A stretch of 64,000 nucleotides of DNA, taken from positions 3,744,001 through 3,808,000 of the forward strand of contig OZ252149.1 in assembly GCA_965248755.1 (NCBI GenBank), given 5' to 3'. A program made the position numbers and the translations under genes. Below the pieces are notes generated by a model, which was given only the letters and a program-made list of their open reading frames with translations, had not been told where the DNA came from and did not search any database. Shown here piece by piece: positions 1,869-39,569 of this stretch. How positions within the stretch are numbered: the stretch's first letter is position 1; every line of letters starts with the position of its first letter. This DNA comes from Candidatus Latescibacterota bacterium. Its GTDB lineage: Bacteria > Latescibacterota > CBDEFO01.

Positions 1869-2990
1869 CTACCGCATCAGTATCAGCTTCCTGGTCTGCA
1901 CGAATCCATCTGTTTCCATGCGATAGAGATAGACACCGCTGGCGAGGTTTTCGCCGTTGCTATCTTTAGCGTTCCACACTAAAGAGTGGCTCCCTGCATC
2001 CATCTCTCCGTCCACCAACCTCGCTACCTTCTGCCCCATCATATTGAAGACAGATATGGCAACGTGGCTTCTAACAGGCAGATCGTAGTGGATAACCGTC
2101 TCAGGGTTGAACGGATTGGGATAGTTCTGTGAGAGGGCATAAGTTTCGGGTATGACATCCAGCGACAGCTCAGTCTGCTCGGTTGCCGCAGGGATTAAGC
2201 CCTCGTTGAGCTGGATGTCCTTAATCCTTAACAGAGTAGTCTCCAATCCATCACTCACACCGGGTATAGTCTCAAACTTGATGTAGGCTATGTCTCCGCT
2301 GCCTTCTACTCCGTCTGCGGAGGCAAATGCTATCTTGACCTCGTCCCCCTCAATATTGCTCTGGAACATAAACTGGGACATCATATCTGAAGGAGATACG
2401 CTCACTGCCTTCAGCCTTGATGCGTCGTAGCTTATAGACATATATGCTCCGAGCACACCTGACATATCGTCTATGGAAACAGGGACCTTTATGCCCTTTT
2501 CAGATGCTTGTACAGCATCAGATATCGCCACCGTGCGAGGTGAGACGGGCGCGGCCTTCGCAACACCAGGTTCTCCGAAGAACGGAAGTCCGGGTATCTT
2601 CCTGACCACCTTCTGGAGGATGCGGGATGCGTCAAATGGTGACACTGTCCCATCGCGAGTCACGTCTACGATGGCAAGGAACAGGTCTGTGTCTCCACCG
2701 AAGAAGTCGCGCAATATGTTCCTGGTCTGGACCACCCACTGTAGAACTAATGCGGCGTCGAAAGCCCTGACCGCACCGTTAAGGCTGCCATCGCCTACCT
2801 GCGCTACTGTGATGCCGCCGTCGAACTTGACCACAGGTGGGTCACCCTCGTTCAGGATCGTTTGACGCCCTAGCACAAATATTTCGATACTTGAGCCCAA
2901 CAATACGCCGGGATCTACTTCGAATACCGCAAATGCCAGGATGCCCTTTGGAGTATCAACGAGCGGAGTAGGCGAGGCAAAGGCTATTAA
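1869..2990 (-). pseudogene. C-terminal part (end of cohesin, dockerin, cohesin, NYPNPFNP/FlgD-Ig sorting domain) of the giant gene starting at 14569, separated by an IS-borne insertion
   Basis: Frame is open from 2990 (LIAFASPTPLVD...). Dockerin-like GDGSLNGAVRAFDA...DVTRDGTVSPFDA and terminal YALSQNYPNPFNPET...SGVYLYRM. Joins in frame to 9032-14569. Confidence 0.85.
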
Positions 2991-4616
2991 CCCCCATTCG
3001 CCATATTAGACCCGAAAAATGGTTGTCAAAGTCGCCAGAACATGTTATATTACAATAAATAAGACTCATAAATGGCGGATAAATATTGATCATCCAGAGG
3101 GTGAAAGAATGAAAGTAGGTTTTGATGGAGGAATAAAGCTTGAATTTCATGGTGCAAAGGTGACATCAAACGGTGGACTTCTTGCGTATCGTGACCTTGA
3201 TTACGCACTGGGATTATTTGATTCGGTATCAGCGGTTTTTACCGATAAACGCACAGGCCGTAATATCCAACATGATATATCTACTCTCCTGCGTCAATCG
3301 ATATACAGCCGTCTTGCAGGATATGAAGATGTAAATGACGCCGAGCGATTATCCGTTGATCCCGTCATGCGAGCGATTACCGGAAAGAAGGACAAAGGCA
3401 GGCAAGCTGCCAGCTCCAACACGATAGGACGTTTTGAAACTGATATACTGACTCAGCATGACAATCTCAGAAACTTGTCAGATATCAATGGCAAGTGGGT
3501 TCAAAAAGCGATGAGTAAAACACAGCATCAACGAATCATTCTGGACATGGACAGTTCGGAGAGTCCGGTACATGGCCAGCAGGAAGGATCAGCTTACAAC
3601 GGTCATTTCGGATGTACCTGTTTTCATCCAGTGTTCTGCTTCAATCAGTTCGGGGATTGTGAAGGAGTCCTACTTCGCTCTGGTAATGTTCACAGTGCTG
3701 ATCGTTGGAAGGAAGTTCTGGAACCGATCGTCAAGAGATACGAGAGCAAGAAGAATAGGAAATACTTTCGAGGCGATGCTGCATTCGCAAAGCCTGAGAT
3801 TTATGATTATCTGGAGGGAAACGGCTATTTGTATGCCATTCGGCTTCCCGCAAATGAGATACTCTATGAAAAGATACGATACCTGCTGACTCGGCCAGTT
3901 GGACGACCGCCGAGGAAACCGATTGTATCGTTATATGAATTTCAATATAAAGCGGCCAGTTGGGATCAATCGAGGCGAGTGGTCGCCAAGGTTGAATGGC
4001 ACCAAGGGGAGTTATTCCCAAGAGTGGGATTTATCGTGACCAACATGAGCGCCAAGCCAGAAGGCGTGGTACACTTCTACAATGGCCGTGGCAGAGCTGA
4101 GCAGTGGATTAAGGAGGGCAAGTATGCTCTGAACTGGACCCGACTCTCATGCAAGCGTTTCGTCTCCAATCAGGTGAGGCTCTGGCTGTTTGTTCTGGCT
4201 TACAACTTGGGCAACTTCCTGCGACGTTTTGTTCTTCCGAAGAAAATCAAACACTGGTCACTACGCAGCCTCCTCGTGAAATTTATCAAAATCGGAGCGA
4301 AGATTGTCAGACACAGCGGATATATTACGTTTCAAATGGCTGAGGTTGGGATAGACAAGAGGTTATTTGCCGAAATATTATCCCGGATTGAACGATTGCG
4401 ATGTTATTCTGTTTAAACTGCCACATTTTTTTGTGAGTCGATGGAGAGGTGTCTCTAATTGGAGGATTTAAACACAAAGAAAGTGATAATTCAGAGGAAA
4501 ATACTATTTTAATTGAAAAAAGTACTTGTTGAAAAATGTAAAAGTGGTAATATTAATTCAGAAACAAGAATGTATCGAAATATAATCCCTCATGAATGTG
4601 ATATGGGGAATGTCGG
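2991..4616 (+). mobile_element. IS1380-family insertion sequence, copy 1 (1626 bp)
   Basis: Imperfect terminal inverted repeats CCCCCATTCGCCATAT and CCGACATTCCCCATAT (reverse complement). Same ends and length in all four copies. Confidence 0.92.
3019..4416 (+). CDS. IS1380-family DDE transposase
   Basis: TSNGGLL, AGYEDVND, ILDMDSS, RGDAAF and FYNGRGRAEQWIKEGK motifs typical of IS1380 (DDE_Tnp_1_4) transposases. Confidence 0.92.
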   Translation: MVVKVARTCYITINKTHKWRINIDHPEGERMKVGFDGGIKLEFHGAKVTSNGGLLAYRDLDYALGLFDSVSAVFTDKRTGRNIQHDISTLLRQSIYSRLAGYEDVNDAERLSVDPVMRAITGKKDKGRQAASSNTIGRFETDILTQHDNLRNLSDINGKWVQKAMSKTQHQRIILDMDSSESPVHGQQEGSAYNGHFGCTCFHPVFCFNQFGDCEGVLLRSGNVHSADRWKEVLEPIVKRYESKKNRKYFRGDAAFAKPEIYDYLEGNGYLYAIRLPANEILYEKIRYLLTRPVGRPPRKPIVSLYEFQYKAASWDQSRRVVAKVEWHQGELFPRVGFIVTNMSAKPEGVVHFYNGRGRAEQWIKEGKYALNWTRLSCKRFVSNQVRLWLFVLAYNLGNFLRRFVLPKKIKHWSLRSLLVKFIKIGAKIVRHSGYITFQMAEVGIDKRLFAEILSRIERLRCYSV

Positions 4617-4779
4617 TCAACATCTCACTGCTGCCTCCCCCGTACTTGAATATCACCTCATTGGGCTGATACTCCTTCTGCTGGCATACGCTCAGCACCA
4701 GCTTTGCCTCATCCACTGAGAGTTCCCCGAACATGGGGATCCTTCTTATCATGTTCAGCACTTTGAAGTCGGTTGCCAT
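4617..4779 (-). pseudogene. 5' fragment of a cyclic-nucleotide-binding-domain protein, truncated at the IS right end (passenger DNA)
   Basis: RBS GGAGG, then MATDFKVLNMIRRIPMFGELSVDEAKLVLSVCQQKEYQPNEVIFKYG, a cNMP-domain start, running directly into the IS end. Confidence 0.7.
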
Positions 4780-5169
4780 GTCTTATCCTCCTTCACGTAA
4801 CGGAAGGCTCTTCTCCCAAAACAGTAACGTGAACCCCAAAACATCAAAACTGGACAGATGGCTTAGCAAGTTTTTAGAATCATGCAAGAGCTCAAAATGA
4901 GTCTCCACGGGGGCTGTTATGTCAAATAAACCTTCTATCTTTACAGATGTACATTAGAAATAAGTTGTCTTGCACCACTCGATTTGGTAGAATAGGTATG
5001 CCCACCAACAGAAAGGTAAGACTGTCAAGTCGGGTAGTCTGTGCAACCAACGCGAAAAACTTGCTTTACTTGTCCAATTACGTGCTCAGAAAAACGGGTT
5101 CAGTTCATTCCCGCTCTTCCATTCCTATCGCCAAACTTTTTGTCTAAAATGTCCTGCACGATCATAAGT

Positions 5170-5775
5170 TTAATTTCTATCCTGTCTCACTAAAAAAAAG
5201 TAACTTATGTGGACTTTTAAGGCGGAGGCGATCTTACGTAAAGTAGAAATTGAAGCTGAACTGTCTCCCAATTCGATCTTGGATATTAGGCTTAGCGATA
5301 GCCCTGTCCTGTTTGCCAACTGCTTGATCGTTAACCCTTTTTCCTGCCTTAAAGCTCGAATCCTTTGTCCTATCTCTGATGCTAACTTTTCGTCAGGATC
5401 AATTTCCAGGCCCCTCTCAGCCAGAGCCTTTTGAATAACATCTAAAAGTTCTGGCATCCTGAATGGTTTCGTAATGTAATCAGTAACGCCCAGCTTCATC
5501 GTGGTGACAGCCGATTCCGTACTCGGGTAACCCGTCACTACGATTACAGACACATCCGAGTCGAACTTCCTTATGTCTACAAGGAGATCATCACCTGTTA
5601 TTGCGGGCATTTTTAGATCCAGAAGTACCACGTGATGCATCCCACTTTTAAGTTTGTCCATCGCCCTTTTGGGATCAGTGACACTTTCAACATCAAAACC
5701 CTCTTGAGTAAGGTAATGACTAAGCGAATCGCTAAATTCTTTGTCGTCGTCAATTATCAGTGTTTTAATCTTCAT
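5170..5775 (-). CDS. Response regulator: receiver domain plus XRE/HTH_3 DNA-binding domain
   Basis: LIIDDD, LLDLKMP, VTGY and KPF receiver motifs; C-terminal IGQRIRALRQEKGLTIKQLANRTGLSLSLISKIELG. Confidence 0.9.
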   Translation of the reverse strand: MKIKTLIIDDDKEFSDSLSHYLTQEGFDVESVTDPKRAMDKLKSGMHHVVLLDLKMPAITGDDLLVDIRKFDSDVSVIVVTGYPSTESAVTTMKLGVTDYITKPFRMPELLDVIQKALAERGLEIDPDEKLASEIGQRIRALRQEKGLTIKQLANRTGLSLSLISKIELGDSSASISTLRKIASALKVHISYFFLVRQDRN

Positions 5776-5792
5776 CTTAGCTTTAGTTCAAT

Positions 5793-5903
5793 TCATGCTG
5801 AAGTTTTTGTCAGCACATCTTCAAGTTCTGACAGTTTAAAGGTTTTGTACAGTATCGCGTAAAAGCCTATTCCCCTTGCCGCTGTCCTCTTAGTAAAAAG
5901 CAA
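5793..5903 (-). pseudogene. Possible remnant of a receiver-domain C-terminus
   Basis: Translates as ...ARGIGFYAILYKTFKLSELEDVL..., resembling the KPF region; no start visible. Confidence 0.35.
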
Positions 5904-6307
5904 TTAGGATCAAGCACTTGTCGATAAAAAGTTTCAACTATTGTTTTATGATATGACGTGAACCCCAAACTGGACAGGGTCTTAATATACGACGATGCCG
6001 ACTCTTTGTCAACCTTTTTCAAATCATAACATATATATTCTACAATTATTTAGTATGAATAAACTATTCTATAAATACTATATAAAAAGAAAGCCCGCCA
6101 TTTCTGACGGACTGTGTGTTTGAGTATCGCCGACTCTTTTACATTTAGAGACTCTTTACCTACAGGATCATTCACTCGTTCCCATTATCACCTCGCGTAA
6201 TGTCTTGCTCAGTTCTTCGACCTTATATGGTTTGGCAACAAAACTGCTGAAACCATATTGCCTGAAATTGGCTAATACCGGATCGTTAGAATAACCGCTC
6301 GATACAA

Positions 6308-7933
6308 CCCCCATTCGCCATATTAGACCCGAAAAATGGTTGTCAAAGTCGCCAGAACATGTTATATTACAATAAATAAGACTCATAAATGGCGGATAAA
6401 TATTGATCATCCAGAGGGTGAAAGAATGAAAGTAGGTTTTGATGGAGGAATAAAGCTTGAATTTCATGGTGCAAAGGTGACATCAAACGGTGGACTTCTT
6501 GCGTATCGTGACCTTGATTACGCACTGGGATTATTTGATTCGGTATCAGCGGTTTTTACCGATAAACGCACAGGCCGTAATATCCAACATGATATATCTA
6601 CTCTCCTGCGTCAATCGATATACAGCCGTCTTGCAGGATATGAAGATGTAAATGACGCCGAGCGATTATCCGTTGATCCCGTCATGCGAGCGATTACCGG
6701 AAAGAAGGACAAAGGCAGGCAAGCTGCCAGCTCCAACACGATAGGACGTTTTGAAACTGATATACTGACTCAGCATGACAATCTCAGAAACTTGTCAGAT
6801 ATCAATGGCAAGTGGGTTCAAAAAGCGATGAGTAAAACACAGCATCAACGAATCATTCTGGACATGGACAGTTCGGAGAGTCCGGTACATGGCCAGCAGG
6901 AAGGATCAGCTTACAACGGTCATTTCGGATGTACCTGTTTTCATCCAGTGTTCTGCTTCAATCAGTTCGGGGATTGTGAAGGAGTCCTACTTCGCTCTGG
7001 TAATGTTCACAGTGCTGATCGTTGGAAGGAAGTTCTGGAACCGATCGTCAAGAGATACGAGAGCAAGAAGAATAGGAAATACTTTCGAGGCGATGCTGCA
7101 TTCGCAAAGCCTGAGATTTATGATTATCTGGAGGGAAACGGCTATTTGTATGCCATTCGGCTTCCCGCAAATGAGATACTCTATGAAAAGATACGATACC
7201 TGCTGACTCGGCCAGTTGGACGACCGCCGAGGAAACCGATTGTATCGTTATATGAATTTCAATATAAAGCGGCCAGTTGGGATCAATCGAGGCGAGTGGT
7301 CGCCAAGGTTGAATGGCACCAAGGGGAGTTATTCCCAAGAGTGGGATTTATCGTGACCAACATGAGCGCCAAGCCAGAAGGCGTGGTACACTTCTACAAT
7401 GGCCGTGGCAGAGCTGAGCAGTGGATTAAGGAGGGCAAGTATGCTCTGAACTGGACCCGACTCTCATGCAAGCGTTTCGTCTCCAATCAGGTGAGGCTCT
7501 GGCTGTTTGTTCTGGCTTACAACTTGGGCAACTTCCTGCGACGTTTTGTTCTTCCGAAGAAAATCAAACACTGGTCACTACGCAGCCTCCTCGTGAAATT
7601 TATCAAAATCGGAGCGAAGATTGTCAGACACAGCGGATATATTACGTTTCAAATGGCTGAGGTTGGGATAGACAAGAGGTTATTTGCCGAAATATTATCC
7701 CGGATTGAACGATTGCGATGTTATTCTGTTTAAACTGCCACATTTTTTTGTGAGTCGATGGAGAGGTGTCTCTAATTGGAGGATTTAAACACAAAGAAAG
7801 TGATAATTCAGAGGAAAATACTATTTTAATTGAAAAAAGTACTTGTTGAAAAATGTAAAAGTGGTAATATTAATTCAGAAACAAGAATGTATCGAAATAT
7901 AATCCCTCATGAATGTGATATGGGGAATGTCGG
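6308..7933 (+). mobile_element. IS1380-family insertion sequence, copy 2; simple insertion with 4-bp target duplication ACAA
   Basis: ACAA at 6304-6307 and 7934-7937; same ends and transposase as copy 1. Confidence 0.92.
6336..7733 (+). CDS. IS1380-family transposase
   Basis: Protein identical to 3019..4416. Confidence 0.92.
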   Translation: MVVKVARTCYITINKTHKWRINIDHPEGERMKVGFDGGIKLEFHGAKVTSNGGLLAYRDLDYALGLFDSVSAVFTDKRTGRNIQHDISTLLRQSIYSRLAGYEDVNDAERLSVDPVMRAITGKKDKGRQAASSNTIGRFETDILTQHDNLRNLSDINGKWVQKAMSKTQHQRIILDMDSSESPVHGQQEGSAYNGHFGCTCFHPVFCFNQFGDCEGVLLRSGNVHSADRWKEVLEPIVKRYESKKNRKYFRGDAAFAKPEIYDYLEGNGYLYAIRLPANEILYEKIRYLLTRPVGRPPRKPIVSLYEFQYKAASWDQSRRVVAKVEWHQGELFPRVGFIVTNMSAKPEGVVHFYNGRGRAEQWIKEGKYALNWTRLSCKRFVSNQVRLWLFVLAYNLGNFLRRFVLPKKIKHWSLRSLLVKFIKIGAKIVRHSGYITFQMAEVGIDKRLFAEILSRIERLRCYSV

Positions 7934-9026
7934 ACAATGGCCTTAACCTCAGGGTCTATTTCAAGCAGCTTCCTGATGGCTTCTTTTCCCCCGATACCGC
8001 CAGGCACAGTTAAATCCATAATAACTGCATCAAAGGGCTGTCCTGATTTCTGGGCCTGCTTGTAAAGCTTGATAGCTGCGGCGCCATCTTCGGCAAACTG
8101 TGCCTCATATCCAAAATGAGTCAGTATCTGGCTGAGGGACTCTCTGATGTCTTCCTCATCGTCCATGATCAAAATCTTGCCCTTGCCGGCAAGGGGTTTT
8201 TCCTCTACATCTTCCTTTATCTGGATTTCTTTTGAGGTAGCGGGGAGATAGATATGGAAGGTGGTTCTAACTCCCAACTCGGATTCTACACTTATGTACC
8301 CATCGTGGTTCGTAACTATGGAATAGGAAGTCGTAAGACCAAGGCCGCTGCCCTCCTGTTTAGTCGTGAAAAAGGGATCGAATATCTTATCAAGATGCTC
8401 CTGGGCTATACCGATCCCCTGATCTGCAACGCATGTTTTTATGTATTTTCCCTCCTGCAAAGGGAGAGCGCCTTTTGCTCCTACGGTAACATTTTCAGCA
8501 CGCATCTTAATTGTCCCGCCGTGGGGCATTGCCTGGTCAGCGTTGATAATCAAATTGTTGATGACCTGACTTATCTGTCCTTCATCAACTTCAACCGCCA
8601 AAAGACCGTCAGGGAAGGAGAATTCGCACTTAACATTGGAGCCTCTCAAGGCAAAGCCGACTGAATCTTTTATTAATTCTGAGATAGAGATCGTCTCCTT
8701 AATCGGCGCTCCGCCGCTGGAAAAGGTGAGCAATTGCTGGGTCAAGTCCTTTGCCTTTATGGACACTTTCTCTATCGTAGTCAATACCTCAGAGATTTCA
8801 TCTTCCGATTTTGCATACTTTGCAAGGGAGACATTGACCAAAATCGTAGCTAGAACATTATTAAAGTCGTGTGCAATTCCCGCTGCTACGTGTCCTAAAA
8901 CATTGAGCCTTTCCATCCGGACTATCTGCTCTTGCGCCTCCTGCAATTTTCGATAGGAGTGATCTAAATCCAGGCTCATCCGGCTCAGTTCCTGATTGGC
9001 TCTCTGCACAAGAGTAAAAATGTCCT

Positions 9027-12000
9027 ATTAAGGCTGTTCCAGGTTCAGGAGAGTTAAAATCGAAGCTACCGGGGAAGTCTCGTCCCGGACCCGGAGATGC
9101 CTTCAAAAATTTCACACTGGCTTGATCGAAACGGAGCGTTATCTCGCCTGCTATCACGCCTTTGTCGTCCAGACCAACAGCAAAGATAGGGATTATGGCC
9201 TGTCCTCCGGGACCTGCGATCTCCTCGCCTGCTCCCAAGGTCACAAAGTTAGACGGGTCGGCTGTCGCAAACGAGGCGGCGCTGTCTGCAAGGCTCTTCG
9301 CGCCGAGGTTGTCCTCCGCTTCGATGTTCACAAGGAACTGTCGGGGACGATCGGCGGGAGTAGGCCATGGAGCGCTGCCCCAGAGTATATCACCCGGATC
9401 TCCGTCGAAATGCGCCCCATCGTTGAAGAGGGGGACAAGCGCAGGAACAAAGGTCGCATCGGTCGGATCCCACACCATCGCCTCGACCGCGGCCACTCCG
9501 TCTGGATCGGTTACCTCAGCGAATATCCGCACAGGTTCGCCGACTGGAACGACACTTCGGGAGACTGCTACGTTGGCTATTTCAGGCCCAGCAGGAGCCA
9601 GAGCCGGAACGCCCCTGCCCATCAGAGGAACTCGCAAGGAGGGAGTATCCGGGTCGTTGCTGTTGATTATCAGTGTGTCGTAGGATACCGCCACAGACCC
9701 AGGCTCAAACCTGACCTCTATCTTGGTCATCCCAGCAGGACCAATCCTAGCCGGTCCTATCAAGGACGCACCAAACGGCAGAGCAGTCGGAGCCAGAGAA
9801 ATACCACTTATTTCCAGCGTATCGTTACCTGTATTGTTCACCATCAGGGAGTCAATCTTGAAAGCGCCCGCTTCGACAGTACCGAAGTCATGAGAAGGCG
9901 GAGTCACAACTATATTGGGCCCGGCAGGAGGAGTCACCTGAGGCCCCACCTTACGTATCCGGTCATTGGCAAAATCCGCAATATAGATAATCCCCGATCC
10001 ATCCACAAATACGCCACTAGGTAATTTCAAAGTCGCATCGGTAGCTAGACCGTCATCACCGGAAAATCCTCCGCCGCTGAAACCAGTAGCCCCACTTCCT
10101 GCCACGGTGGAGATGATGCCAGACGTATTATCCACCTTACGTATCCGATGATTGACCTGATCCGCAATATAGATATTGCCCAATCCATCCACGGATACGT
10201 CCTGAGGAGAATCCAAACTCGCAAGGGTAGCTAAACCATCATCACCGGAAAATGCTTGGGTGCCATTTCCTGCCACGGTGGAGATGATGCCCGATGTATC
10301 AACCTTACGTATCCGCTGGTTGAAAGAATCCGCAATATAGATAACCCCCGATGTATCCACGAATACGCCCATAGGCTGATTCAAACTCGCATCGGTAGCT
10401 TGACCACCATCGCCTATACCACTGGCAGGGAATCCACCTCCTGCCACTGTGGTGATGATGCCAGACGTATCCACCTTACGTATCCGATTATTGTTCATAT
10501 CCGCAATATAGATAATCCCTGATCCATCCACGAATACGCCCCAAGGGTGATTCAAACTCGCAACGGTAGCTTGACCGTCATCACCGGAAAATCCCCCGCC
10601 GCTGAAACCAATAGCCCCACTTCCCGCCACGGTGGTGAGGATGCCCGATTGATCAACCTTACGTATCCGGTGATTGATACGATCCGCAATATAGATAACC
10701 CCCAATCCATCCACGAATACGTCATGGGGCTGATTCAAACTCGCATCGGTAGCTTGACCACCATCACCGGAAAACCTTCCGAGCCCAGTAAGTGGATCCG
10801 TGAACCCATCTCCTGCCACGGTGGTGATGACGCCCGATTGATTCACCTTACGTATCCGCTGATTGTTCCTATCCGCGATATAGATATTACCTGATACATC
10901 CGTGAATACACCAACAGGCAAACCCAATCTCGCCTCGGTAGCTGGACCACCGTCACCTATATCAGGGAAAGTGAATCCACCTCCTGCCACGGTGGTAATG
11001 ATGCCCGGTGTGGGTGGAGGCGCAACATTAACGCCTTCTCCGGTCAGAGGGACTTCAAACACTGGGGTGTCAGGGTCGTTGCTGCTGATCCTCACAGTAT
11101 CGCTGACAGCTCCCACAGAAGCGGGTTGAAACTGAACAATAATTTTGGATAATCCGCCCGGAGGGATACTGTCAGGGTATGTGCCAAGCAAAGACACATT
11201 GAACGGCGGCCCTCCGTAGGTCGCCTGGGAGATAACAAGCGTATCCGTCCCGGTATTGCTCACCATCAAAGTATCTGATTTGGAAGCGCCCACGTCCACA
11301 GTACCGAAGTTCACAGAATCCGGATTCACAGCTATATTGGGCGTATCCTGTTGTGCAGCAATACCAACACCTGCTAAATTTACAAACAGAGTGTCGTCAG
11401 CGGCGTCTGGATCGTTGCTGGGTATGAGCAAAGTGGCATTCTTGGGCCCCGGAGCGCCAGGACTGAAAATCGCAACCACACTGATGTTACCACCTGGGAC
11501 AATAGCCGTACCGGAAAGATTGCCAAGAATAGGGTTAAAGCTGAAAGCAAGCGGATTGGGGCCGGTCTTGGAGACAGTTCCCAAGCGCAAAGTGTCATTG
11601 CCGGTATTTGTGATCGTCAGTGAATCTTGTCTCAATCCCCCGACTACGACAGTATCAAAACCGATAGAAACGGGATCAACAACTATATTGGCCGCAGGAG
11701 GAGGTGCAGCAGGCCCCACCTTACGTATCCGGTTATTGCCCCGATCCGCAATATAGATACTCCCCGATCCATCCACGAATACGCCAGAAGGAGTTCTCAT
11801 AGTCGCCTCGGTAGCTGGACCATCATCACCGGAAAAACTTCCGTTGTTAAGACCAGGAGTCCCACTTCCTGCCACGGTGAAGATGATGCCCGACGTATCC
11901 ACCATACGTATCCGATTACTGTACTGTTCCGCAATATAGATATTGCCCAATCCATCCCCAGATACGCCAATAGGATGATCCAATCTCGCCTCTGTAGCTA

Positions 12001-14569
12001 GACCTCCATCACCGGAAAATCCTCCGTTGGCATTACCAGTACCCCCACTTCCCGCCACGGTGGTGATGACGCCCAACGTATCCACCTTACGTATCCGGTG
12101 ATTGAAATAATCCGCAATATAGATTGACCCTGGTCCATCCACGAATACGCCAGAAGGGTAGAACAAACTCGCACTGGTAGCTTGACCATCATCACCGGAA
12201 AAAGCAGTTTGCCCATTTCCTGCCACGGTGGTGATGACGCCCAACGTATCCACCTTACGTATCCGACCACCGAGCTGTTCCGCAATATAGATATTTCCCG
12301 ATCCATGCACGAATACGTCAAAAGGACGAAACAAACCCGCACTGGTAGCTGGACCGTTATCACCGGAAGATGTCTGGGTGCCATTTCCTGCCACGGTGGT
12401 GATGACGCCCAGCGTATCAATCTTACGTACCCGTTCATTTAGCCTATCCGCGATATAGATAACCCCTGATCCATCCACGAATACGCCTTCAGGCTGAAAC
12501 AAACTCGCACTGGTAGCTTGACCATCATCACCGGAATATGCACCAGTGCCATTTCCCGCCACTGTGGAGATGTTGCCCGATGTATCCACTTTACGTATCC
12601 GATTATTGTTCCTATCCGAGATATAGATATTACCCGCTCCATCCGCGAATACTCCTCCAGGAGCACCCAAACTCGCGTCGGTAGCTTGACCTCCATCACC
12701 TAAGCCATCGGGTGGAGTTCCACCTCCTGCCACGGTATTGATGGGGCCAGGTGCGGGTGGAGGCGCAACGCCCTCTCCGGCCAGAGGAACTTCAAAGACT
12801 GGAGTGTCGGGGTCGTTGCTGTTGATCCTCACAGTATCGCTAACTGCTCCTGCAGAACTGGGTTGAAACTGAACAATAATTTTGGATAATCCGCCCGGGG
12901 GGATGCTGTGAGGGTATGTGCCCAGCAAAGATACATTAAACGGCGGCCCTCCGTAGGTCGCCTGGGAGAGAACAAGCGTATCTGTCCCGACATTGCTCAC
13001 CATCAGAGTATCCGACTTAGAACCGTCCACTTGCACAGTACCGAAGTCCACAGAATCCGGATTTACAGCTATGTTGGGCACAGGTGGCGCAACTGCAACA
13101 CCTGTGAGAGCCACAGACACGGTATCCTGAGCGGCGTCTGGATCGTTGCTCGGAATGACTAAAGTGGCGCTCTTAGACCCAACAGCGCCAGGACTGAAAT
13201 TCGCAATAACCTTGATATTACCACCTGGGACAATAGCCGTACCGGAAAGATTGGCAAGAATAGGATTAAAGCTGAAAGCAGCTATATTAGGACCGGTCTT
13301 GGATACAGTTCCCAAACGCAACGTGTCATTGCCGGTATTTGAGATAGTCAGTGAATCTTGTCTCAGCCCTCCTACCAGCAGGGTATCAAAATCGATAGAA
13401 ACAGGATCCAGAGCTATATTGGGTGCAGGAGGAGGCGCAGCAGGCCCCTCCACCTTACGTATCCGGTTATTGCTATTATCCGCAATATAGATATTGCCCG
13501 ATACATCCACGAATACGTCACGAGGGCCATTCAAGCTCGCACTGGTAGCTGCACTACCATCACCGGAAAATCCAGCAATACCATCTCCTGCCACGGTATT
13601 GATGTTGCCCGATGTATCCACCTTACGTATCACGTGATTGGAAAGATCCGCAATATAGATATTGCCCGATCCGTCCACGGATACGCCAAAAGGATTATTC
13701 AAGCTCGCACTGGTAGCTGGACCACCATCACCGGAAAATCCAGCAGTGTCATTCCCTGCCACGGTGGAGATGATGCCCGACGTATCCACCTTACGTATCC
13801 GGTGATTCCCTTGATCCCCAATATAGATATTGCCAGATCCATCCACGAATACGCTAAAAGGATTATTCAAGCTCGCACTGGTAGCTGGGCCATCATCACC
13901 GGAAAATCCAGGAGTGCCATTCCCTGCCACGGTGGTGATAGTGTCTGCTGACGTATCCACCTTACGTATCCGCTGATTGCTCGTATCCGCAATATAGATA
14001 TTGCCAGATCCATCCACGAATACGCCCCTAGGAAAATTCAAACTCGCACTGGTAGCTGGACCACCATCACCGGAAAATGTCTTGGTGCCATTTCCCACCA
14101 CCGTGGAGATGTTGCCCGACGTATCCACCTTACGTATCCGTGCATTGTCCCTGTCCGCAATATAGATATTGCCCTCAGCATCCACGAATACGCCCTCAGG
14201 AAGTTTCAATCTCGCACTGGTAGCTGCAAGACCATCACCGGAAAATCCACCGTTGGCAGCACCAGTAGGTCCACTACCTGCCACGGTGGTGATAGTGTCT
14301 GTTGACGTATCCACCTTACGTATCCGGTGATTGACATGATCCACAATATAGATATTGCCCGATCCATCCACGAATACGCCACGAGGCTGATTGAAACTCG
14401 CATTGGTAGCTGGACCACCATCACCAGTAGATCCAGCAGTTCCATTTCCCGCCACGGTGGAGATGTCGCCTGGTGCAGCAACAACTGAAGAGACAAATCC
14501 AAACATCCAAAAGCCCAATACCAACATACCAGTCAGAATCTGTTTGACGTGATCTCTTTTCACGTTCAT
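9027..14569 (-). pseudogene. N-terminal part of a giant secreted protein (about 2219 aa reconstructed): three NHL-repeat beta-propeller blocks, five Ig/ASH domains, cohesin
   Basis: Signal peptide; repeated P.GVFVDGSGNIYIAD..N.RIRKVD..G.ITTVAG; IPSNDPD-type Ig domains. 9032-14569 plus 1869-2990 gives 6660 nt in one frame. Confidence 0.88.
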
Positions 14570-14711
14570 TTATACTATCCCCCTGCGTTGAAATGTGTTG
14601 TGATGAGTTTTGAGAACTCGAACAATATCTCGTGTTTCGATAGGGGCGAGGTAAGCTTGCCCCTAAATTTATTAGTGTTGAATGAAGATAACTAAATCTT
14701 AGTGTCTTTAC

Positions 14712-15845: not shown

Positions 15846-15849
15846 TTTT

Positions 15850-18586: not shown

Positions 18587-18628
18587 TTTGTGGATTAGGG
18601 TTTTAGGTCAATCAGGAATTCCTTAAGC

Positions 18629-19427
18629 TTGGAAGAAAAGATGCATATGATGCATATACTGAGGACATTGACATTTGTCGCTTTGATGTGCGGGATTGCA
18701 TCTCTATCCTGGGGCCAATCCGTGACGCTCAGGGTCGAAGACGCAGTCATAGACGAAGGAACTGCATCTGTCTCTGTGCCGATCTTCTTCGACACTAGCG
18801 ACCTGAGACCTATACGGAGCATGCAGATACAGCTTCTGTTCGATACGGATGATCTTCTGTTTAAGAGGGCAAATAAGGTGTCGAGCCGTCTGAACAGATT
18901 CGTGGTGAGGGCGGACGCGGAGATCCTGAAAGCCCAGACGGGAACCTTTGGATTGGATATAGATATTTTTGCCATCGGGGGACGTACGATCCCTGCCGGG
19001 GCGGATATTATCCTTACTCTGGACTTTGATATAATTGAAGGGGCTACATTACCCTCACAACTAACCTTTCTACCGTTCGATGGTGTGTGTAGCACTAGGC
19101 ACAAAAGGGGTTATCGATGCCGACAGCGGATTTCCAGATGACCAGCATCCGCTGATTCTTGAGAATGGCAACATCGTAATAGTAGTAAAAAAGCTTATAG
19201 GTGACATCAGCAGAAACGTCAAGGTTAGTTCTTTCGACGCTTCTTTAGCACTAATGTATTCGGTCGGAATCAGGAACATAATACGCGAGTTCTTTGACGG
19301 GAATATAGGACTATTCCTTGATATCTCCGATGTGACTCGCAATGGGGAAGTGACATCTATGGATGCCGTTCGAATTTTGCAATTTGTAGTTGGGAATATC
19401 CCAGGACTCCCGTTCCAAGAAAACTGA
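18629..19427 (+). pseudogene. Small secreted cohesin-dockerin protein, frameshifted near 19085
   Basis: Signal peptide and cohesin-like domain near-identical to that of the next gene; GTGT expansion near 19085; dockerin GDISRNVKVSSFDA...DVTRNGEVTSMDA. Confidence 0.75.
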
Positions 19428-21343: not shown

Positions 21344-22969
21344 CCCCCATTCGCCATATTAGACCCGAAAAATGGTTGTCAAAGTCGCCAGAACATGTTA
21401 TATTACAATAAATAAGACTCATAAATGGCGGATAAATATTGATCATCCAGAGGGTGAAAGAATGAAAGTAGGTTTTGATGGAGGAATAAAGCTTGAATTT
21501 CATGGTGCAAAGGTGACATCAAACGGTGGACTTCTTGCGTATCGTGACCTTGATTACGCACTGGGATTATTTGATTCGGTATCAGCGGTTTTTACCGATA
21601 AACGCACAGGCCGTAATATCCAACATGATATATCTACTCTCCTGCGTCAATCGATATACAGCCGTCTTGCAGGATATGAAGATGTAAATGACGCCGAGCG
21701 ATTATCCGTTGATCCCGTCATGCGAGCGATTACCGGAAAGAAGGACAAAGGCAGGCAAGCTGCCAGCTCCAACACGATAGGACGTTTTGAAACTGATATA
21801 CTGACTCAGCATGACAATCTCAGAAACTTGTCAGATATCAATGGCAAGTGGGTTCAAAAAGCGATGAGTAAAACACAGCATCAACGAATCATTCTGGACA
21901 TGGACAGTTCGGAGAGTCCGGTACATGGCCAGCAGGAAGGATCAGCTTACAACGGTCATTTCGGATGTACCTGTTTTCATCCAGTGTTCTGCTTCAATCA
22001 GTTCGGGGATTGTGAAGGAGTCCTACTTCGCTCTGGTAATGTTCACAGTGCTGATCGTTGGAAGGAAGTTCTGGAACCGATCGTCAAGAGATACGAGAGC
22101 AAGAAGAATAGGAAATACTTTCGAGGCGATGCTGCATTCGCAAAGCCTGAGATTTATGATTATCTGGAGGGAAACGGCTATTTGTATGCCATTCGGCTTC
22201 CCGCAAATGAGATACTCTATGAAAAGATACGATACCTGCTGACTCGGCCAGTTGGACGACCGCCGAGGAAACCGATTGTATCGTTATATGAATTTCAATA
22301 TAAAGCGGCCAGTTGGGATCAATCGAGGCGAGTGGTCGCCAAGGTTGAATGGCACCAAGGGGAGTTATTCCCAAGAGTGGGATTTATCGTGACCAACATG
22401 AGCGCCAAGCCAGAAGGCGTGGTACACTTCTACAATGGCCGTGGCAGAGCTGAGCAGTGGATTAAGGAGGGCAAGTATGCTCTGAACTGGACCCGACTCT
22501 CATGCAAGCGTTTCGTCTCCAATCAGGTGAGGCTCTGGCTGTTTGTTCTGGCTTACAACTTGGGCAACTTCCTGCGACGTTTTGTTCTTCCGAAGAAAAT
22601 CAAACACTGGTCACTACGCAGCCTCCTCGTGAAATTTATCAAAATCGGAGCGAAGATTGTCAGACACAGCGGATATATTACGTTTCAAATGGCTGAGGTT
22701 GGGATAGACAAGAGGTTATTTGCCGAAATATTATCCCGGATTGAACGATTGCGATGTTATTCTGTTTAAACTGCCACATTTTTTTGTGAGTCGATGGAGA
22801 GGTGTCTCTAATTGGAGGATTTAAACACAAAGAAAGTGATAATTCAGAGGAAAATACTATTTTAATTGAAAAAAGTACTTGTTGAAAAATGTAAAAGTGG
22901 TAATATTAATTCAGAAACAAGAATGTATCGAAATATAATCCCTCATGAATGTGATATGGGGAATGTCGG
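21344..22969 (+). mobile_element. IS1380-family insertion sequence, copy 3 (plus 98-bp passenger to 23067)
   Basis: Same ends; CTTAG at 21339-21343 and 23068-23072. Confidence 0.92.
21372..22769 (+). CDS. IS1380-family transposase
   Basis: Protein identical to 3019..4416. Confidence 0.92.
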   Translation: MVVKVARTCYITINKTHKWRINIDHPEGERMKVGFDGGIKLEFHGAKVTSNGGLLAYRDLDYALGLFDSVSAVFTDKRTGRNIQHDISTLLRQSIYSRLAGYEDVNDAERLSVDPVMRAITGKKDKGRQAASSNTIGRFETDILTQHDNLRNLSDINGKWVQKAMSKTQHQRIILDMDSSESPVHGQQEGSAYNGHFGCTCFHPVFCFNQFGDCEGVLLRSGNVHSADRWKEVLEPIVKRYESKKNRKYFRGDAAFAKPEIYDYLEGNGYLYAIRLPANEILYEKIRYLLTRPVGRPPRKPIVSLYEFQYKAASWDQSRRVVAKVEWHQGELFPRVGFIVTNMSAKPEGVVHFYNGRGRAEQWIKEGKYALNWTRLSCKRFVSNQVRLWLFVLAYNLGNFLRRFVLPKKIKHWSLRSLLVKFIKIGAKIVRHSGYITFQMAEVGIDKRLFAEILSRIERLRCYSV

Positions 22970-23381
22970 TCGAATCTATTATAGGTCTTCCAGGCGTTGC
23001 TCCACATGTCCATACACTCCACTTTGTGCTTGGCGTACTGAACGCGCTGGAACTGGTATTTTCCGCGCTTAGATGTCTTCGGAAGTTCATCTCCGATAGA
23101 TTCAATCGGGGAGAAGTCTGCCAATTGGGATCCTAAATTCGACTTGAATAACGATGGGAACGTTGGGCTTTCGGATTTTGTGGTTTTCCTGGATAACTTC
23201 GACAGAGAATGCTAAGAAAAGTAGACAGTAGACAGTAGACAGGGAAAAGCAAAGGCAAAGACAGATACACGTGTTTGCCCCTACAGCTCCGCCGTTCTAT
23301 GTGGGGGCGAATGCATGGGGTTCGCCCGGCAGACTATGAATAGGTCCATCTCAGGGAGTCAGAAGATAAGGAGTTGCAGCT

Positions 23382-35992: not shown

Positions 35993-36576
35993 GTAGTTAT
36001 ATTTTGTGGACAATCACTCAAAGTTAGATAATGTTCTATCACGAAGGGAGGAGAGAACATGCGCAAAAAGGTAAAGATCCTGAAAGATTCTGGGTTGATC
36101 TTAGCTCTTAGCATCTTTATAGGTGCTTGGGAGGCGTCGGCCGGTCAGATCCCTGAGGAGACTATGGATTCTATAACCGATACAATCTCCTTTGACGCTG
36201 TGGGGGACAGGGCAGCAATTCAGATTGGGATAGATACGGTTGCGGTTAACTCAGGGGCGACATTGAGAGATAGTCTGTTGTCTGTGAGCTATTATTGTCT
36301 ATTTATCTCCTTTTCAGGACTATAATCTGTGCGGCTTTTGCTCCCAGCGTGATAGCCGCGGCTTGTTCTAGCCGCCGTATTGCAGATATAAACTGCTTGG
36401 GTGAACAGCTCTTCAGTTCCTGACCATAGTAACACCCCCGAGTTTCTTCATAGGTCTACCCAGGTCTTTTCCAAGATCTTGTCCCAGGCACTTTTATTGA
36501 GAGTATAAAAGAAATTTCTACTTAACCTATGATTCAAGAGGAGAGATACGCTAACATCTATCGAGTATATCAATTC

Positions 36577-36665
36577 TGGTGCCGAAGCCGGGAGTCGAAC
36601 CCGGATGGACGTTAAAGCCCGCGGGATTTTGAGCCCCGTGTGTCTACCAGTTTCACCACTTCGGA
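36577..36665 (-). tRNA. tRNA-Leu (anticodon CAA) with encoded CCA; U1-C72 mismatch
   Basis: TCCGAAG-TGGTGAAACTGGTAGACAC-A-CGGGG-CTCAAAA-TCCCG-long variable arm-CCGGG-TTCGACT-CCCGG-CTTCGGC-A-CCA. Confidence 0.9.
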
Positions 36666-36740
36666 ACCTGTATTCAGATCGTCCAAATATGCGGGTAAGC
36701 AGCCAGCGCCAGACTGGAATGTCTGACGCGACACTTTGAA

Positions 36741-37232
36741 TCAAAAACTATCAGCCCGATCATATCCAGGGGCGTTTGCCTTGCACGGTCCTATGATCTC
36801 TGAGAAGACGACCGCTTGTACTACGGATTTAGAGTTGAATCAAATCGGCAGACGCACAGGAGCTTTATAATCTCCTTTTTCTGCCCTTCCCCACTCGGGA
36901 GACTTGGCAGGTTTTGAAGGTGCAGCGTGCACAGCGGGTCGAACGACCACTTCGGATTGTCCACTCGATTCTGGCTGAACATACCCTACAGTCTCTAACT
37001 TTTTAGTCCTCTCCCGCGCTAAAGTCTCCTGCTTGTGTATCTGATCTTCAGCTTCAAAATCGTATTCTTCTTCCATTTCATCCGCCGGCATTATATCCCG
37101 CTGTGCCCTGGCAATAGGAACAGCAGGCGGACCAGCTGCGGAATCTTCCTTCGCCTTTCTCTCCGCCTGCCGGATCTTGCTGAATATATAGGATATTACG
37201 ATGAGAATGATGACAAACCAGAAACTATCCAT
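36741..37232 (-). pseudogene. Single-TM membrane protein with an in-frame TGA at 36840-36842 (passenger DNA)
   Basis: MDSFWFVIILIVISYIFS...; after the TGA the frame continues FNSKSVVQAVVFSEIIGPCKA, resembling the SEI.GPP tail of YqfB-like proteins. Confidence 0.6.
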
Positions 37233-37274
37233 TACACGATCTTTCTTTTTTGAACTGCTTGTTACAGAGTCAAC

Positions 37275-38900
37275 CCGACATTCCCCATATCACATTCATG
37301 AGGGATTATATTTCGATACATTCTTGTTTCTGAATTAATATTACCACTTTTACATTTTTCAACAAGTACTTTTTTCAATTAAAATAGTATTTTCCTCTGA
37401 ATTATCACTTTCTTTGTGTTTAAATCCTCCAATTAGAGACACCTCTCCATCGACTCACAAAAAAATGTGGCAGTTTAAACAGAATAACATCGCAATCGTT
37501 CAATCCGGGATAATATTTCGGCAAATAACCTCTTGTCTATCCCAACCTCAGCCATTTGAAACGTAATATATCCGCTGTGTCTGACAATCTTCGCTCCGAT
37601 TTTGATAAATTTCACGAGGAGGCTGCGTAGTGACCAGTGTTTGATTTTCTTCGGAAGAACAAAACGTCGCAGGAAGTTGCCCAAGTTGTAAGCCAGAACA
37701 AACAGCCAGAGCCTCACCTGATTGGAGACGAAACGCTTGCATGAGAGTCGGGTCCAGTTCAGAGCATACTTGCCCTCCTTAATCCACTGCTCAGCTCTGC
37801 CACGGCCATTGTAGAAGTGTACCACGCCTTCTGGCTTGGCGCTCATGTTGGTCACGATAAATCCCACTCTTGGGAATAACTCCCCTTGGTGCCATTCAAC
37901 CTTGGCGACCACTCGCCTCGATTGATCCCAACTGGCCGCTTTATATTGAAATTCATATAACGATACAATCGGTTTCCTCGGCGGTCGTCCAACTGGCCGA
38001 GTCAGCAGGTATCGTATCTTTTCATAGAGTATCTCATTTGCGGGAAGCCGAATGGCATACAAATAGCCGTTTCCCTCCAGATAATCATAAATCTCAGGCT
38101 TTGCGAATGCAGCATCGCCTCGAAAGTATTTCCTATTCTTCTTGCTCTCGTATCTCTTGACGATCGGTTCCAGAACTTCCTTCCAACGATCAGCACTGTG
38201 AACATTACCAGAGCGAAGTAGGACTCCTTCACAATCCCCGAACTGATTGAAGCAGAACACTGGATGAAAACAGGTACATCCGAAATGACCGTTGTAAGCT
38301 GATCCTTCCTGCTGGCCATGTACCGGACTCTCCGAACTGTCCATGTCCAGAATGATTCGTTGATGCTGTGTTTTACTCATCGCTTTTTGAACCCACTTGC
38401 CATTGATATCTGACAAGTTTCTGAGATTGTCATGCTGAGTCAGTATATCAGTTTCAAAACGTCCTATCGTGTTGGAGCTGGCAGCTTGCCTGCCTTTGTC
38501 CTTCTTTCCGGTAATCGCTCGCATGACGGGATCAACGGATAATCGCTCGGCGTCATTTACATCTTCATATCCTGCAAGACGGCTGTATATCGATTGACGC
38601 AGGAGAGTAGATATATCATGTTGGATATTACGGCCTGTGCGTTTATCGGTAAAAACCGCTGATACCGAATCAAATAATCCCAGTGCGTAATCAAGGTCAC
38701 GATACGCAAGAAGTCCACCGTTTGATGTCACCTTTGCACCATGAAATTCAAGCTTTATTCCTCCATCAAAACCTACTTTCATTCTTTCACCCTCTGGATG
38801 ATCAATATTTATCCGCCATTTATGAGTCTTATTTATTGTAATATAACATGTTCTGGCGACTTTGACAACCATTTTTCGGGTCTAATATGGCGAATGGGGG
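37275..38900 (-). mobile_element. IS1380-family insertion sequence, copy 4 (plus 979-bp passenger 36296-37274)
   Basis: Same ends in reverse orientation; ATTAT at 36291-36295 and 38901-38905. Confidence 0.92.
37475..38872 (-). CDS. IS1380-family transposase
   Basis: Protein identical to 3019..4416. Confidence 0.92.
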   Translation of the reverse strand: MVVKVARTCYITINKTHKWRINIDHPEGERMKVGFDGGIKLEFHGAKVTSNGGLLAYRDLDYALGLFDSVSAVFTDKRTGRNIQHDISTLLRQSIYSRLAGYEDVNDAERLSVDPVMRAITGKKDKGRQAASSNTIGRFETDILTQHDNLRNLSDINGKWVQKAMSKTQHQRIILDMDSSESPVHGQQEGSAYNGHFGCTCFHPVFCFNQFGDCEGVLLRSGNVHSADRWKEVLEPIVKRYESKKNRKYFRGDAAFAKPEIYDYLEGNGYLYAIRLPANEILYEKIRYLLTRPVGRPPRKPIVSLYEFQYKAASWDQSRRVVAKVEWHQGELFPRVGFIVTNMSAKPEGVVHFYNGRGRAEQWIKEGKYALNWTRLSCKRFVSNQVRLWLFVLAYNLGNFLRRFVLPKKIKHWSLRSLLVKFIKIGAKIVRHSGYITFQMAEVGIDKRLFAEILSRIERLRCYSV

Positions 38901-39569
38901 ATTATGTCGTTGGTGTGCTTAATCCGTTTCTTGCCAAGGTCTTTGATCTAAGCGGTAGTGAACCGGGCGCGGAGTTGGTAAGTAAGACGATAGATCCTGC
39001 TGGAGGTCTCAGTCAGCTCACAGCGTCCGGATGGACAAGGTTTGAGGATGGCAGAGTCTCCTTGGGAATTACAAAGAATCAGCAACTGTTTCCAGCTATG
39101 GAGTTGTCCTCCGCTACGGGTCCTTCAATAGGTGGGATTAGCAGTCTTGACGCCGACGCAAGCTGGACCTACGATGACATCGCAGGGACGACTAAGTGGA
39201 GACGGGGCTCCGATTTTGTGGGGATCGCAGGGGACGGAGGATTTATGATACGGGCACTGACGGGTATCATGGGAGATGTGACGAAATTCGCGGGTCTTGA
39301 AAGGGGCACAGCAGACGGCGAGGTTGGGACGGAGGATCTGGACTTCGTAGTGGATGTAATCCTTCAGAGGACTTCAGCAACTGGTGTATCTGATGTACTG
39401 TCAGGGGCAGATGGGGTTACGCGGTTCCTTATGGATCCGGTGGACGGTGCAGGTGGAGGGGCTGACGGTACGATCAATCTCTTTGATGTCTTGTTAGTTG
39501 TAGATAGGCTCTAATTTCTAAAAGTTTACTTAAGGAGTTCCATCCAATTCTCTTTAGGAGGTAATCGCT

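Follow-up and report, generated by a model that had tools for sequence, protein, structure and literature searches.

The insertion sequence (IS) ISEcp1 of the IS1380 family mobilises the genes blaCTX-M and blaCMY-2; it was through the one-ended transposition of IS1380 elements that major beta-lactamase genes were captured and spread by ISEcp1. The target duplication of this family is 4–5 bp. Most work on one-ended transposition was done under antibiotic selection, so that events in which the IS moves alone stay hidden. The units formed by ISEcp1 have a single IS at the left end and hold DNA captured only on the side of the right inverted repeat (IRR), in variable lengths. The whole unit is surrounded by a 5-bp duplication, its substitute right end is weakly similar to the true one, and, according to the accessible text of PMC12589106, such units grow or shrink in later rounds. 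The same text gives 5 bp as the duplication size of ISEcp1, as PMC3281130 does for IS1247 in its available part, and describes a new imperfect right end and 5-bp duplications in 11 of 13 ISEcp1 transconjugants.

The TMos of ISPme1 and IS1247a, which are IS1380-family elements of Paracoccus, are likewise formed by one IS that moves adjacent 3'-side segments of varied lengths; in the accessible parts of PMC9330008 and PMC3281130, hybridisation data pointed to a replicative mechanism. The available part of PMC9330008 states that the "transposable modules" of ISPme1 and ISEcp1 arise by misrecognition of the end. The same intragenomic pattern is seen on plasmid pSHV3 of Sphingobium herbicidovorans MH, where an IS1380 element was copied four times with adjacent genes; the accessible part of PMC5737581 mentions this element without analysing its ends, duplications or donors. 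A search of the open-access literature, too limited to show absence, found no genome-wide census of IS1380 units, and PMC4133298 offered nothing on one-ended events of IS1380 elements.

We analysed a stretch of 64,000 nucleotides (the window) from the chromosome of a Candidatus Latescibacterota bacterium, in which an identical repeat of 1626 bp occurs four times. The layout of the element, with one 465-aa ORF and short terminal inverted repeats (13 of 16 positions match), fits the IS1380 family, whose members have a single transposase ORF and measure about 1.6-1.7 kb. The transposase is a DDE enzyme of this family and scored 385.5 bits against NCBIfam NF033539 (cut-off 180), with an E value of 2.4e-128 against Pfam PF13701. 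It is 25.5% identical to the ISEcp1 transposase over 87% of the length, and ISEcp1 in L022 measures 1656 bp. Since 15 copies in the genome have a perfect direct 5-bp duplication, the ends of the IS were fixed at nt 1 and 1626. Judging from the sequence comparisons described below, we assign a probability of roughly 0.93 to the reading that these repeats are an IS1380-family IS heading three transposition units, which most likely arose when the true right repeat was skipped and a weakly similar site downstream was cut instead, as for ISEcp1 and ISPme1.

Unit 1 (2986..9031) starts with the left copy of the duplication ATTAA (2986..2990, + strand), followed by IS copy 1 (2991..4616, + strand, 1626 bp), which forms the left end of the unit and contains the transposase gene (3019..4416, + strand). 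The passenger of 2780 bp lies in two parts. The first part (4617..6307, + strand, 1691 bp) holds a response-regulator/HTH gene (5170-5775, - strand), and the second (7934..9026, + strand) a truncated hybrid histidine kinase gene. Between them lies IS copy 2 (6308..7933, + strand), a later simple insertion inside the passenger with the 4-bp duplication ACAA (6304-6307 and 7934-7937). The last 14 nt of the passenger (9013-9026, + strand, ...GTAAAAATGTCCT) form the substitute right end, and the right copy of ATTAA (9027..9031, + strand) follows. At the right end of the IS, where an ISEcp1-type unit would be expected to have an outward promoter for captured genes, an outward sigma-70-like match is found at 4557-4586 (10/12); the scan gave 2 sites versus 0.9 from shuffled sequences, which is not significant; the genes of passenger 1 lie on the strand opposite to this promoter-like site.

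Over its first part, passenger 1 shows 100% identity with the right flank of the IS copy at genome position 1315875(-). The second part corresponds to nt 1688-2780 of this flank, and the whole passenger to nt 1-2780, exact to the base. Flanked by the duplication TCAAC, the donor copy is itself a simple insertion, and its site is empty in G001, a relative of the same genus (5-bp overlap TCAAC). The target gene of unit 1 (1869..14569, - strand), whose large NHL-repeat/Ig-like product has a C-terminal sorting domain for type IX secretion, is split into 9027-14569 and 1869-2990. In G001 (contig C6) the gene is uninterrupted, and the two copies of ATTAA seen in the window correspond there to one ATTAC. 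Meanwhile, passenger 1 is found elsewhere in the G001 genome, contiguous across the point where IS copy 2 was inserted. A unitig from the public runs X6 and X8 covers 8997-9286, and thus crosses the distal junction, with 30 nt on the passenger side against a threshold of 31; these runs may derive from the assembled sample. In runs X10 and X11, which come from two related organisms, passenger 1 continues into the donor context instead; there, the part of the target at 9052-10083 is uncovered, a contig hole that does not indicate absence of the gene.

In unit 2 (21339..23072), the two copies of CTTAG (21339..21343 and 23068..23072, both + strand) enclose IS copy 3 (21344..22969, + strand) and a passenger of 98 bp (22970..23067, + strand). 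The latter agrees at every base with the 98 bp that directly follow the right end of the IS copy at genome position 920216(-), which has the duplication TCGAA. In G001 its orthologue, at C8:121109-121212, has no IS beside it. The target gene (19390..23215, + strand), coding for an Ig-like-repeat protein, is split into 19390-21343 and 23073-23215, and rejoining the two completes a dockerin-like C-terminus. An in-genome tblastn search gave 66 matches, 26 of which cross the junction, one of them being the interrupted locus itself.

Unit 3 (36291..38905) has the opposite orientation. IS copy 4 (37275..38900, - strand) is bordered on the side of the left repeat (IRL) by ATTAT (38901..38905, + strand), while the distal copy of the duplication (36291..36295, + strand) reads ATTAT on the + strand and ATAAT in the orientation of the element. 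The split target gene (36059..39514, + strand; parts 36059-36295 and 38906-39514) encodes a secreted protein without a Pfam family. Three of six in-genome tblastn matches cross the junction without gaps (70-72% identity over 247 aa), and the G001 homologues of the target are contiguous across it. The first 718 bp of the 979-bp passenger (36296..37274, - strand) are 93.6% identical to genome positions 499122-499840, and 698 bp of it are 95% identical to G001 C3:128324-129022. No donor with 100% identity was found in this genome, and the donor is either lost or in another genome. We rejected as meaningless the fact that the homology to 499840 begins exactly at the IS junction, as passengers start there by definition.

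The preliminary description had assigned the repeat to the IS1380 family and had noted that three of the four copies are without a duplication directly at the right end, that the 5-mers to their left recur further out, that deletion of each unit restores an open frame and that the passengers are unrelated to the target genes. The family is confirmed by the profile scores, and only the copy at 6308-7933 has a direct duplication, of 4 bp rather than 5 bp. The 5-mers recur at 2986/9027 (ATTAA), 21339/23068 (CTTAG) and 36291/38901 (ATTAT), giving units of the IS plus 2780, 98 and 979 bp with a perfect 5-bp duplication around each. The restored frames are 6657, 2094 and 870 nt from stop to stop, with which the values of 6660, 2043 and 846 nt given earlier, counted from start codons, are compatible. 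The regulator and kinase genes of passenger 1 have nothing in common with the NHL-repeat and Ig-like surface proteins of the targets. As chance alone would be expected to repeat a 5-mer over a few kb, the support is drawn from the donor flanks, the tblastn matches and G001. The proposed search for donor loci where the same IS adjoins the same sequence was positive for units 1 and 2 (100% identity), and the passengers stop exactly where the identity to the donor flank ends. The evidence was read from one assembly and one relative, and for units 2 and 3 the distal junctions were placed by sequence logic only.

The genome contains 47 full copies of the IS. For the census, a unit was called when the left 5 bp recurs exactly where identity to the right flank of another copy stops, or at the boundary of an empty site in G001. 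By this rule, 26 copies are units with a perfect distal 5-bp duplication; 17 are simple insertions, with duplications of 5 bp (n = 15), 4 bp (n = 1) and 6 bp (n = 1), and four fit neither class cleanly. One of the latter replaces 507 bp present in G001. A 257-bp unit at 3959959, proposed from restoration of the ORF alone, was rejected, since comparison with G001 reveals a native right flank there and a gap of 507 bp on the left side. Altogether, 27 of the 47 copies carry right-flank DNA, as compared with the 17 simple insertions, and read-through is therefore the commoner fixed outcome, as the preliminary description had expected from the window. The host DNA copied in this way sums to ~38.7 kb over the passengers of all units.

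Six donor copies with direct duplications have flanks that recur with 100% identity beside other copies. The simple insertion at 753705 (duplication TTCTT) gave rise to passengers of 58, 186 and 1243 bp and the donor at 920216 to passengers of 98, 321 and 398 bp. Every genomic copy of the 186-bp (13/13), 98-bp (4/4) and 58-bp (13/13) sequences adjoins the right end of the IS, and hence these passengers are not independent repeats. Passengers occur on the IRR side only; no left flanks are shared, except by two copies inside another multicopy IS. Some passengers grew in a second round, from 186 to 274 and 1177 bp and from 612 to 966 and 2632 bp: the unit had first inserted at another site, and read-through of its substitute end then took in DNA from the new surroundings. 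These donors, the distal duplications and the strictly right-sided capture support the one-ended, ISEcp1-type transposition with surrogate right ends that had been proposed earlier.

Three alleles of the IS were found: 32 copies are as in the window, 10 have G121C and 5 have C854T. The alleles do not always agree with the genealogy of the passengers; for instance, the donor at 1315875 has 121C and copy 1 of the window does not. At least about 6 allele switches are needed across about 26 events, and this discordance points to gene conversion among the copies or to polishing errors in the repeats.

Twenty distinct substitute ends could be compared. T is found at position -6 from the cut in 19 of the 20 and A at -7 in 16, the frequency of the AT dinucleotide being 0.068. 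The substitute ends match the inverted repeat at a mean of 6.25 of 14 positions (range 4-9/14), versus 4.0 for the positions passed over; for ISEcp1, 6-11 of 14 bases match the left repeat in the accessible text of PMC12589106. The very loose end recognition suggested in the preliminary description thus holds for the weak overall likeness but not for positions -6 and -7, which are nearly fixed. Both true ends of the IS have A at -7 and T at -6 and GG at the tip, as do both ends of ISEcp1 in L022. Hundreds of sites with A and T at -7/-6 were passed over, and therefore this motif alone does not explain the choice of site. The motif was also tried on ISEcp1 units, for which 60 E. coli matches were listed. 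Five chromosomal loci were taken from these; in two of them ISEcp1 is truncated by IS26, and three usable units remained, too small a sample. A unit of 10,337 bp ends with GAAT at -9 to -6 and fits the rule, a unit of 1,333 bp has C and A at -7/-6 and does not, and the third is ambiguous, with a length of 2,491 or 2,545 bp.

The units would be artefacts if wrong flanks had been joined during assembly at a 1.6-kb repeat present 47 times. The near-identity of these repeats and the discordant allele calls fit such an error, and the assembly does have residual errors, since the start (1-7206) and the end (4533530-4540735) of the contig overlap and were left untrimmed, with 1 mismatch and 6 gaps between them. 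However, misassembly would neither yield 26 perfect 5-bp duplications exactly where identity stops nor restore frames matched by paralogues, it would not reproduce the empty site of G001 to the base, and the distal junction of unit 1 is covered by the unitig from public runs; its probability is practically negligible. Homologous recombination between IS copies could also have swapped flanks through inversions or deletions, leaving no direct duplication. The 47 identical copies are an ample substrate for it, the allele discordance suggests exchange between copies, and recombination may explain a few of the four unclassified copies, which have no matching duplication and one of which replaces the 507 bp present in G001. 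As an explanation of the three units in the window it is highly improbable: recombination swaps flanks and does not copy them, whereas the same right flank occurs here up to 13 times, always beside the IS, and the left 5-mer recurs at the far end of the passenger. No reciprocal partner copies with complementary flanks for the window units were found among the 47 copies.

It could be argued that the passengers are small repeats or parts of longer fixed isoforms of the IS, such as a form of 1812 bp (IS + 186 bp) with a fixed second end. Eight copies do have the 186-bp extension in common and stop at one and the same end, each within a different duplication, and once formed such a unit behaves like a longer isoform. 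Yet these 186 bp belong natively beside the simple insertion at 753705, whose flank also gave the 58- and 1243-bp units, 20 different ends are in use and no passenger copy stands without the IS in this genome. For these reasons, the isoform is a sub-case of end skipping rather than an alternative to it, and on its own it is very unlikely. Rolling-circle transposition of the IS91/ISCR type and composite transposons bounded by two IS copies also move DNA beside one element or between two, and one-ended events of IS91 are described in the available part of PMC5737581. Neither deserves more than a minimal share of belief, as the transposase here is a DDE enzyme of the IS1380 family and every unit has a 5-bp duplication, while elements of the IS91 type make none according to the accessible part of PMC9330008. 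Units 2 and 3 are not bounded by a second IS, and the second IS of unit 1 arrived later and has a duplication of its own.

Skipping of the true right repeat thus remains our preferred reading. The transposase would engage the left end first, and the second cut would fall at the first accepted site downstream. Apart from A at -7 and T at -6 relative to the cut and a G/C-rich tail after them, little would be needed for a site to be accepted. The donor would be copied and not excised, as suggested by the donor loci, in which the IS, the duplication and the flank are all still present; this fits the replicative mechanism indicated for the TMos of ISPme1 and IS1247a. The comparison supports the assignment of the units described here as putative ISEcp1/ISPme1-type transposition units (TMos) of a distant family member: the extra DNA lies on the right side only, the duplication surrounds the whole unit, the distal end is imperfect and a donor copy is present for units 1 and 2, though not for unit 3.

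The element is a rich new example of the known ISEcp1 mechanism and not a new kind of element. It differs from ISEcp1 in having an environmental bacterium as its host and, as passengers, ordinary chromosomal DNA for which no selection is known; because of this the simple and read-through events (17 and 27 of 47) can be counted side by side. The TMos of ISPme1 and IS1247a, likened here by description, were caught on trap plasmids, while the present units were read from a chromosome with donors beside their products. The scale is also larger than on pSHV3, with 27 units and 20 distinct ends.

Donors and products are visible together here, with the donors retained; among the fixed copies, a substitute end served in about 6 of every 10, and twenty independent ends can be aligned. 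We put forward only tentatively, as a possibility that we consider rather doubtful, that the genome records, naturally and free of selection, how the second end is chosen by IS1380 transposases: the left end is held, the donor is copied and not excised, the right cut needs only a two-base core before a G/C-rich tip, most fixed events therefore bypass the true right end, and the IS acts as a machine of segmental duplication that can lengthen its cargo stepwise. The earlier idea of a gene-shuffling engine fits this pattern, as a description that implies no benefit to the host; all three units of the window break genes. The genome offers a testable rule for the choice of ends and a model element outside clinical bacteria. 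Should the -7/-6 core prove valid for the whole family, it would account for the sequences open to capture by ISEcp1-type elements and allow them to be predicted. For this organism, a single IS appears to be actively breaking surface-protein genes and duplicating regulatory genes.

A repeat search revealed four identical 1626-bp copies of an insertion sequence (IS) in the window, located at 2991-4616, 6308-7933 and 21344-22969 on the forward strand (copies 1, 2 and 3) and at 37275-38900 on the reverse strand (copy 4). In its own orientation the element begins with CCCCCATTCGCCATAT, and its other terminus is CCGACATTCCCCATAT in reverse complement; the two inverted repeats agree at 13/16 positions. 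The sole ORF of the IS (3019-4416 in copy 1) encodes a transposase of 465 aa, which belongs to the IS1380 family as indicated by its matches to NCBIfam NF033539 (385.5 bits; cut-off 180) and Pfam PF13701 (E 2.4e-128). The ISEcp1 transposase shows 25.5% identity to it with 87% of the length covered, while the closest plasmid-borne relative is 56% identical.

The preliminary description proposed that three of these copies had moved together with passenger DNA lying beyond their right ends, so that the 5 bp to the left of the IS recur at the far end of the passenger. The 5-mers were found as described: ATTAA at 2986 and 9027 (unit 1), CTTAG at 21339 and 23068 (unit 2) and ATTAT at 36291 and 38901 (unit 3). 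Removal of the units opened the frames of the target genes as claimed, over 6657, 2094 and 870 nt, respectively, from stop to stop. Since the recurrence of a 5-mer within kilobases is expected by chance, independent support for the unit boundaries was sought. The target gene of unit 1 is intact in the same-genus relative G001, where both window flanks meet at a single 5-mer, ATTAC instead of the ATTAA of the window. The unit 2 junction is spanned by 26 of 66 in-genome tblastn matches, the interrupted locus itself being among the 26, and rejoining the target completes a dockerin-like C-terminus. For unit 3, three of six in-genome matches span the junction without gaps (70-72% identity, 247 aa), and three homologues of the target in G001 run contiguously over it. 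These results confirm the observation of IS-plus-passenger units and support its interpretation. Copy 2 is a simple insertion within passenger 1, with the 4-bp duplication ACAA, as judged from the donor sequence and G001.

The genes broken by all three units are of the large-secreted-protein kind. Window regions 1-14600, 17900-23300 and 39570-40385 are rich in such proteins, which carry type IX secretion sorting tails and NHL, Ig-like (HYDIN/ASH), cohesin or dockerin-like modules.

The genome is assembled as a single contig of 4.54 Mb, and donor loci, in which the same IS abuts the same sequence, were found in it for units 1 and 2, with 100% identical flanks. In the right flank of the IS copy at 1315875(-), nt 1-2780 are identical to passenger 1 down to the base; the passenger stops directly before ATTAA, and the donor sequence continues beyond. 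TCAAC is duplicated around this donor, a simple insertion whose site is empty in G001. There the two flanks overlap by the 5 bp TCAAC, and passenger 1 sequence is contiguous at this donor locus of G001, on contig C4, and not at the position it has in the window. Passenger 2 corresponds to the 98 bp that directly adjoin the right end of copy 920216(-), which has the duplication TCGAA and is also the source of 321- and 398-bp units. No 100% identical donor of passenger 3 was found in its own genome; genome positions 499122-499840 match its first 718 bp at 93.6% identity, and contig C3 of G001 matches 698 bp of it at 95%. The unit 3 donor has either disappeared or resided in another genome.

A unitig from the public sequencing runs X6 and X8, which may be the sample behind the assembly itself, crosses the distal junction of unit 1 (8997-9286) with just 30 nt on the passenger side. 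In runs X10 and X11, which derive from two related organisms, passenger 1 sequence continues into the donor context instead.

The genome contains 47 full-length IS copies (32 identical to those of the window and 15 with one mismatch) besides older fragments. Simple insertions account for 17 of the 47, with duplications of 5 bp in 15, 4 bp in one and 6 bp in one. In 26 of the 47, a perfect second copy of the left 5-mer follows the far end of a passenger, whose length ranges from 58 to 5734 bp; overall there are 27 units, including these 26. Four copies fall outside both classes. Copy 2980387 is flanked by ATAAT/ATAAG (one mismatch) and is probably a simple insertion and donor; comparison with G001 shows its right flank to be native. 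Copy 1273302 shares 1258 bp of that right flank, terminating in the end-like AAATGCGGC, and its left 5-mer is not repeated there. Copy 3959959-3961584 lacks a duplication and occupies the place of a 507-bp segment found in G001 and nowhere in the window's genome; such an insertion with an adjacent deletion is the product type expected from intramolecular transposition. The fourth copy is 834366.

The possibility that the passengers are repeats in their own right was rejected, as the 186-, 98- and 58-bp sequences adjoin an IS right end in 13/13, 4/4 and 13/13 copies, respectively. No common left flanks were found among the 47 copies, except for two copies inside another IS; together with the passengers at right ends, this indicates that capture is strictly right-sided. 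Donor 753705 yielded passengers of several lengths (58, 186 and 1243 bp), and some units grew in a second round: the 186-bp units at 889340 and 2334675 gave 274- and 1177-bp units, respectively, and 3849774, a 612-bp unit with its end set by an empty site in G001, was the source of 966- and 2632-bp units.

Outside the window, at 2701891-2717690 of the same contig, IS + 186 bp and IS + 4662 bp lie in inverted orientation at an identical position, both with the duplication CTGAC, in two copies of another IS of 1267 bp. At least 10 copies of the latter are identical, and a 91% variant of it occurs at least 15 times. The site looks like a target hot spot within another IS.

To characterize the choice of the second end, the 20 distinct substitute ends were aligned at the cut. 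T is present at -6 in 19/20 and A at -7 in 16/20 (binomial tail probabilities for the first 18 ends, 1e-9 and 5e-6; genome AT dinucleotide frequency, 0.068). None of the 20 has T at -5 or -3 or A at -4, and the last three positions are G/C-rich. The A-T at -7/-6 is also present in both true IS ends, GGAATGTCGG and CGAATGGGGG, and likewise in both ends of ISEcp1 from a Klebsiella plasmid, GGAATTTAGG and AGAATCTAGG. Only three ISEcp1 units were usable for this core, a sample too small to judge: one conforms, one deviates and one is ambiguous. Taken as a whole, the substitute ends bear little likeness to the repeats, with 4 to 9 of 14 positions matching (mean 6.25), compared with 4.0 for all passed-over positions and 5.4 for passed-over A-T sites. 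The recognition previously called very loose is thus loose, but not free, given the near-constant A/T at -7/-6. As the longer passengers skip tens to hundreds of A-T sites, the core by itself does not explain which site is used. A and T make up 78.5% of the target duplications, and position 2 is T in 35/41.

The same pattern is known from ISEcp1 transposition units and from the 'transposable modules' of ISPme1/IS1247a. PMC9330008 explains such structures by a transposase that binds further downstream, at a region similar to the true repeat; for ISPme1 it cites hybridisation data suggestive of a replicative route, whereas for ISEcp1 it states that what becomes of the donor site has not been followed. 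In PMC12589106, 11 of 13 ISEcp1 transconjugants are reported to have 5-bp duplications and to end on the right in a new, imperfect repeat, with 6-11 of 14 bases like the left repeat. PMC5737581 mentions an IS1380 element copied four times together with adjacent genes. In the present genome, six donors with direct duplications and the probable donor 2980387 retain the IS, the duplication and the flank, and the copies of these flanks elsewhere are 100% identical. The retained donors suggest that the donor would be copied, not excised, and are compatible with a copying mechanism. They are no proof of it, because repair from a sister chromosome could also close a gap at the donor.

Identical IS copies were present only in the window's own genome among the 31 genomes searched (itself included), and G001 has an 86% relative and short 3'-end fragments. 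Therefore, the burst is recent and lineage-specific. In G001, left-end pieces of the IS (~75-120 bp) adjoin right-end pieces (~180-190 bp) at C3:327981-328247, C2:24208-24652 and C4:543035-543499; they look like miniature derivatives without transposase. A ~255-bp repeat at window ~35510-35765, with dozens of further loci in both genomes of the genus, where it is abundant (85-97% identity among copies), is probably a miniature mobile element.

Three IS alleles occur among the 47 copies, in 32, 10 (G121C) and 5 (C854T) copies. In some lineages the allele tracks the passenger genealogy, 3849774 and its two descendants all being 854T, but donors 1315875, 6052 and 753705 are 121C, and window copy 1 is among the majority of their descendants that are not. 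About six switches are needed for reconciliation, which could reflect gene conversion among copies or polishing errors. Contig positions 1-7206 are repeated at 4533530-4540735 (99.9% identical), which is an untrimmed circular overlap that terminates within an IS; the partial copy found where the contig ends is copy 6052 seen a second time. The 1 mismatch and 6 gaps in this overlap indicate residual errors in the assembly.

As the mechanism is already known, the window IS is a further, distant example of it. The genome provides an unusually complete natural record of this mechanism, in which 27 units and 20 distinct ends are preserved, donors survive and the cargo has grown step by step, and the two-base core is offered as a testable rule for end choice.
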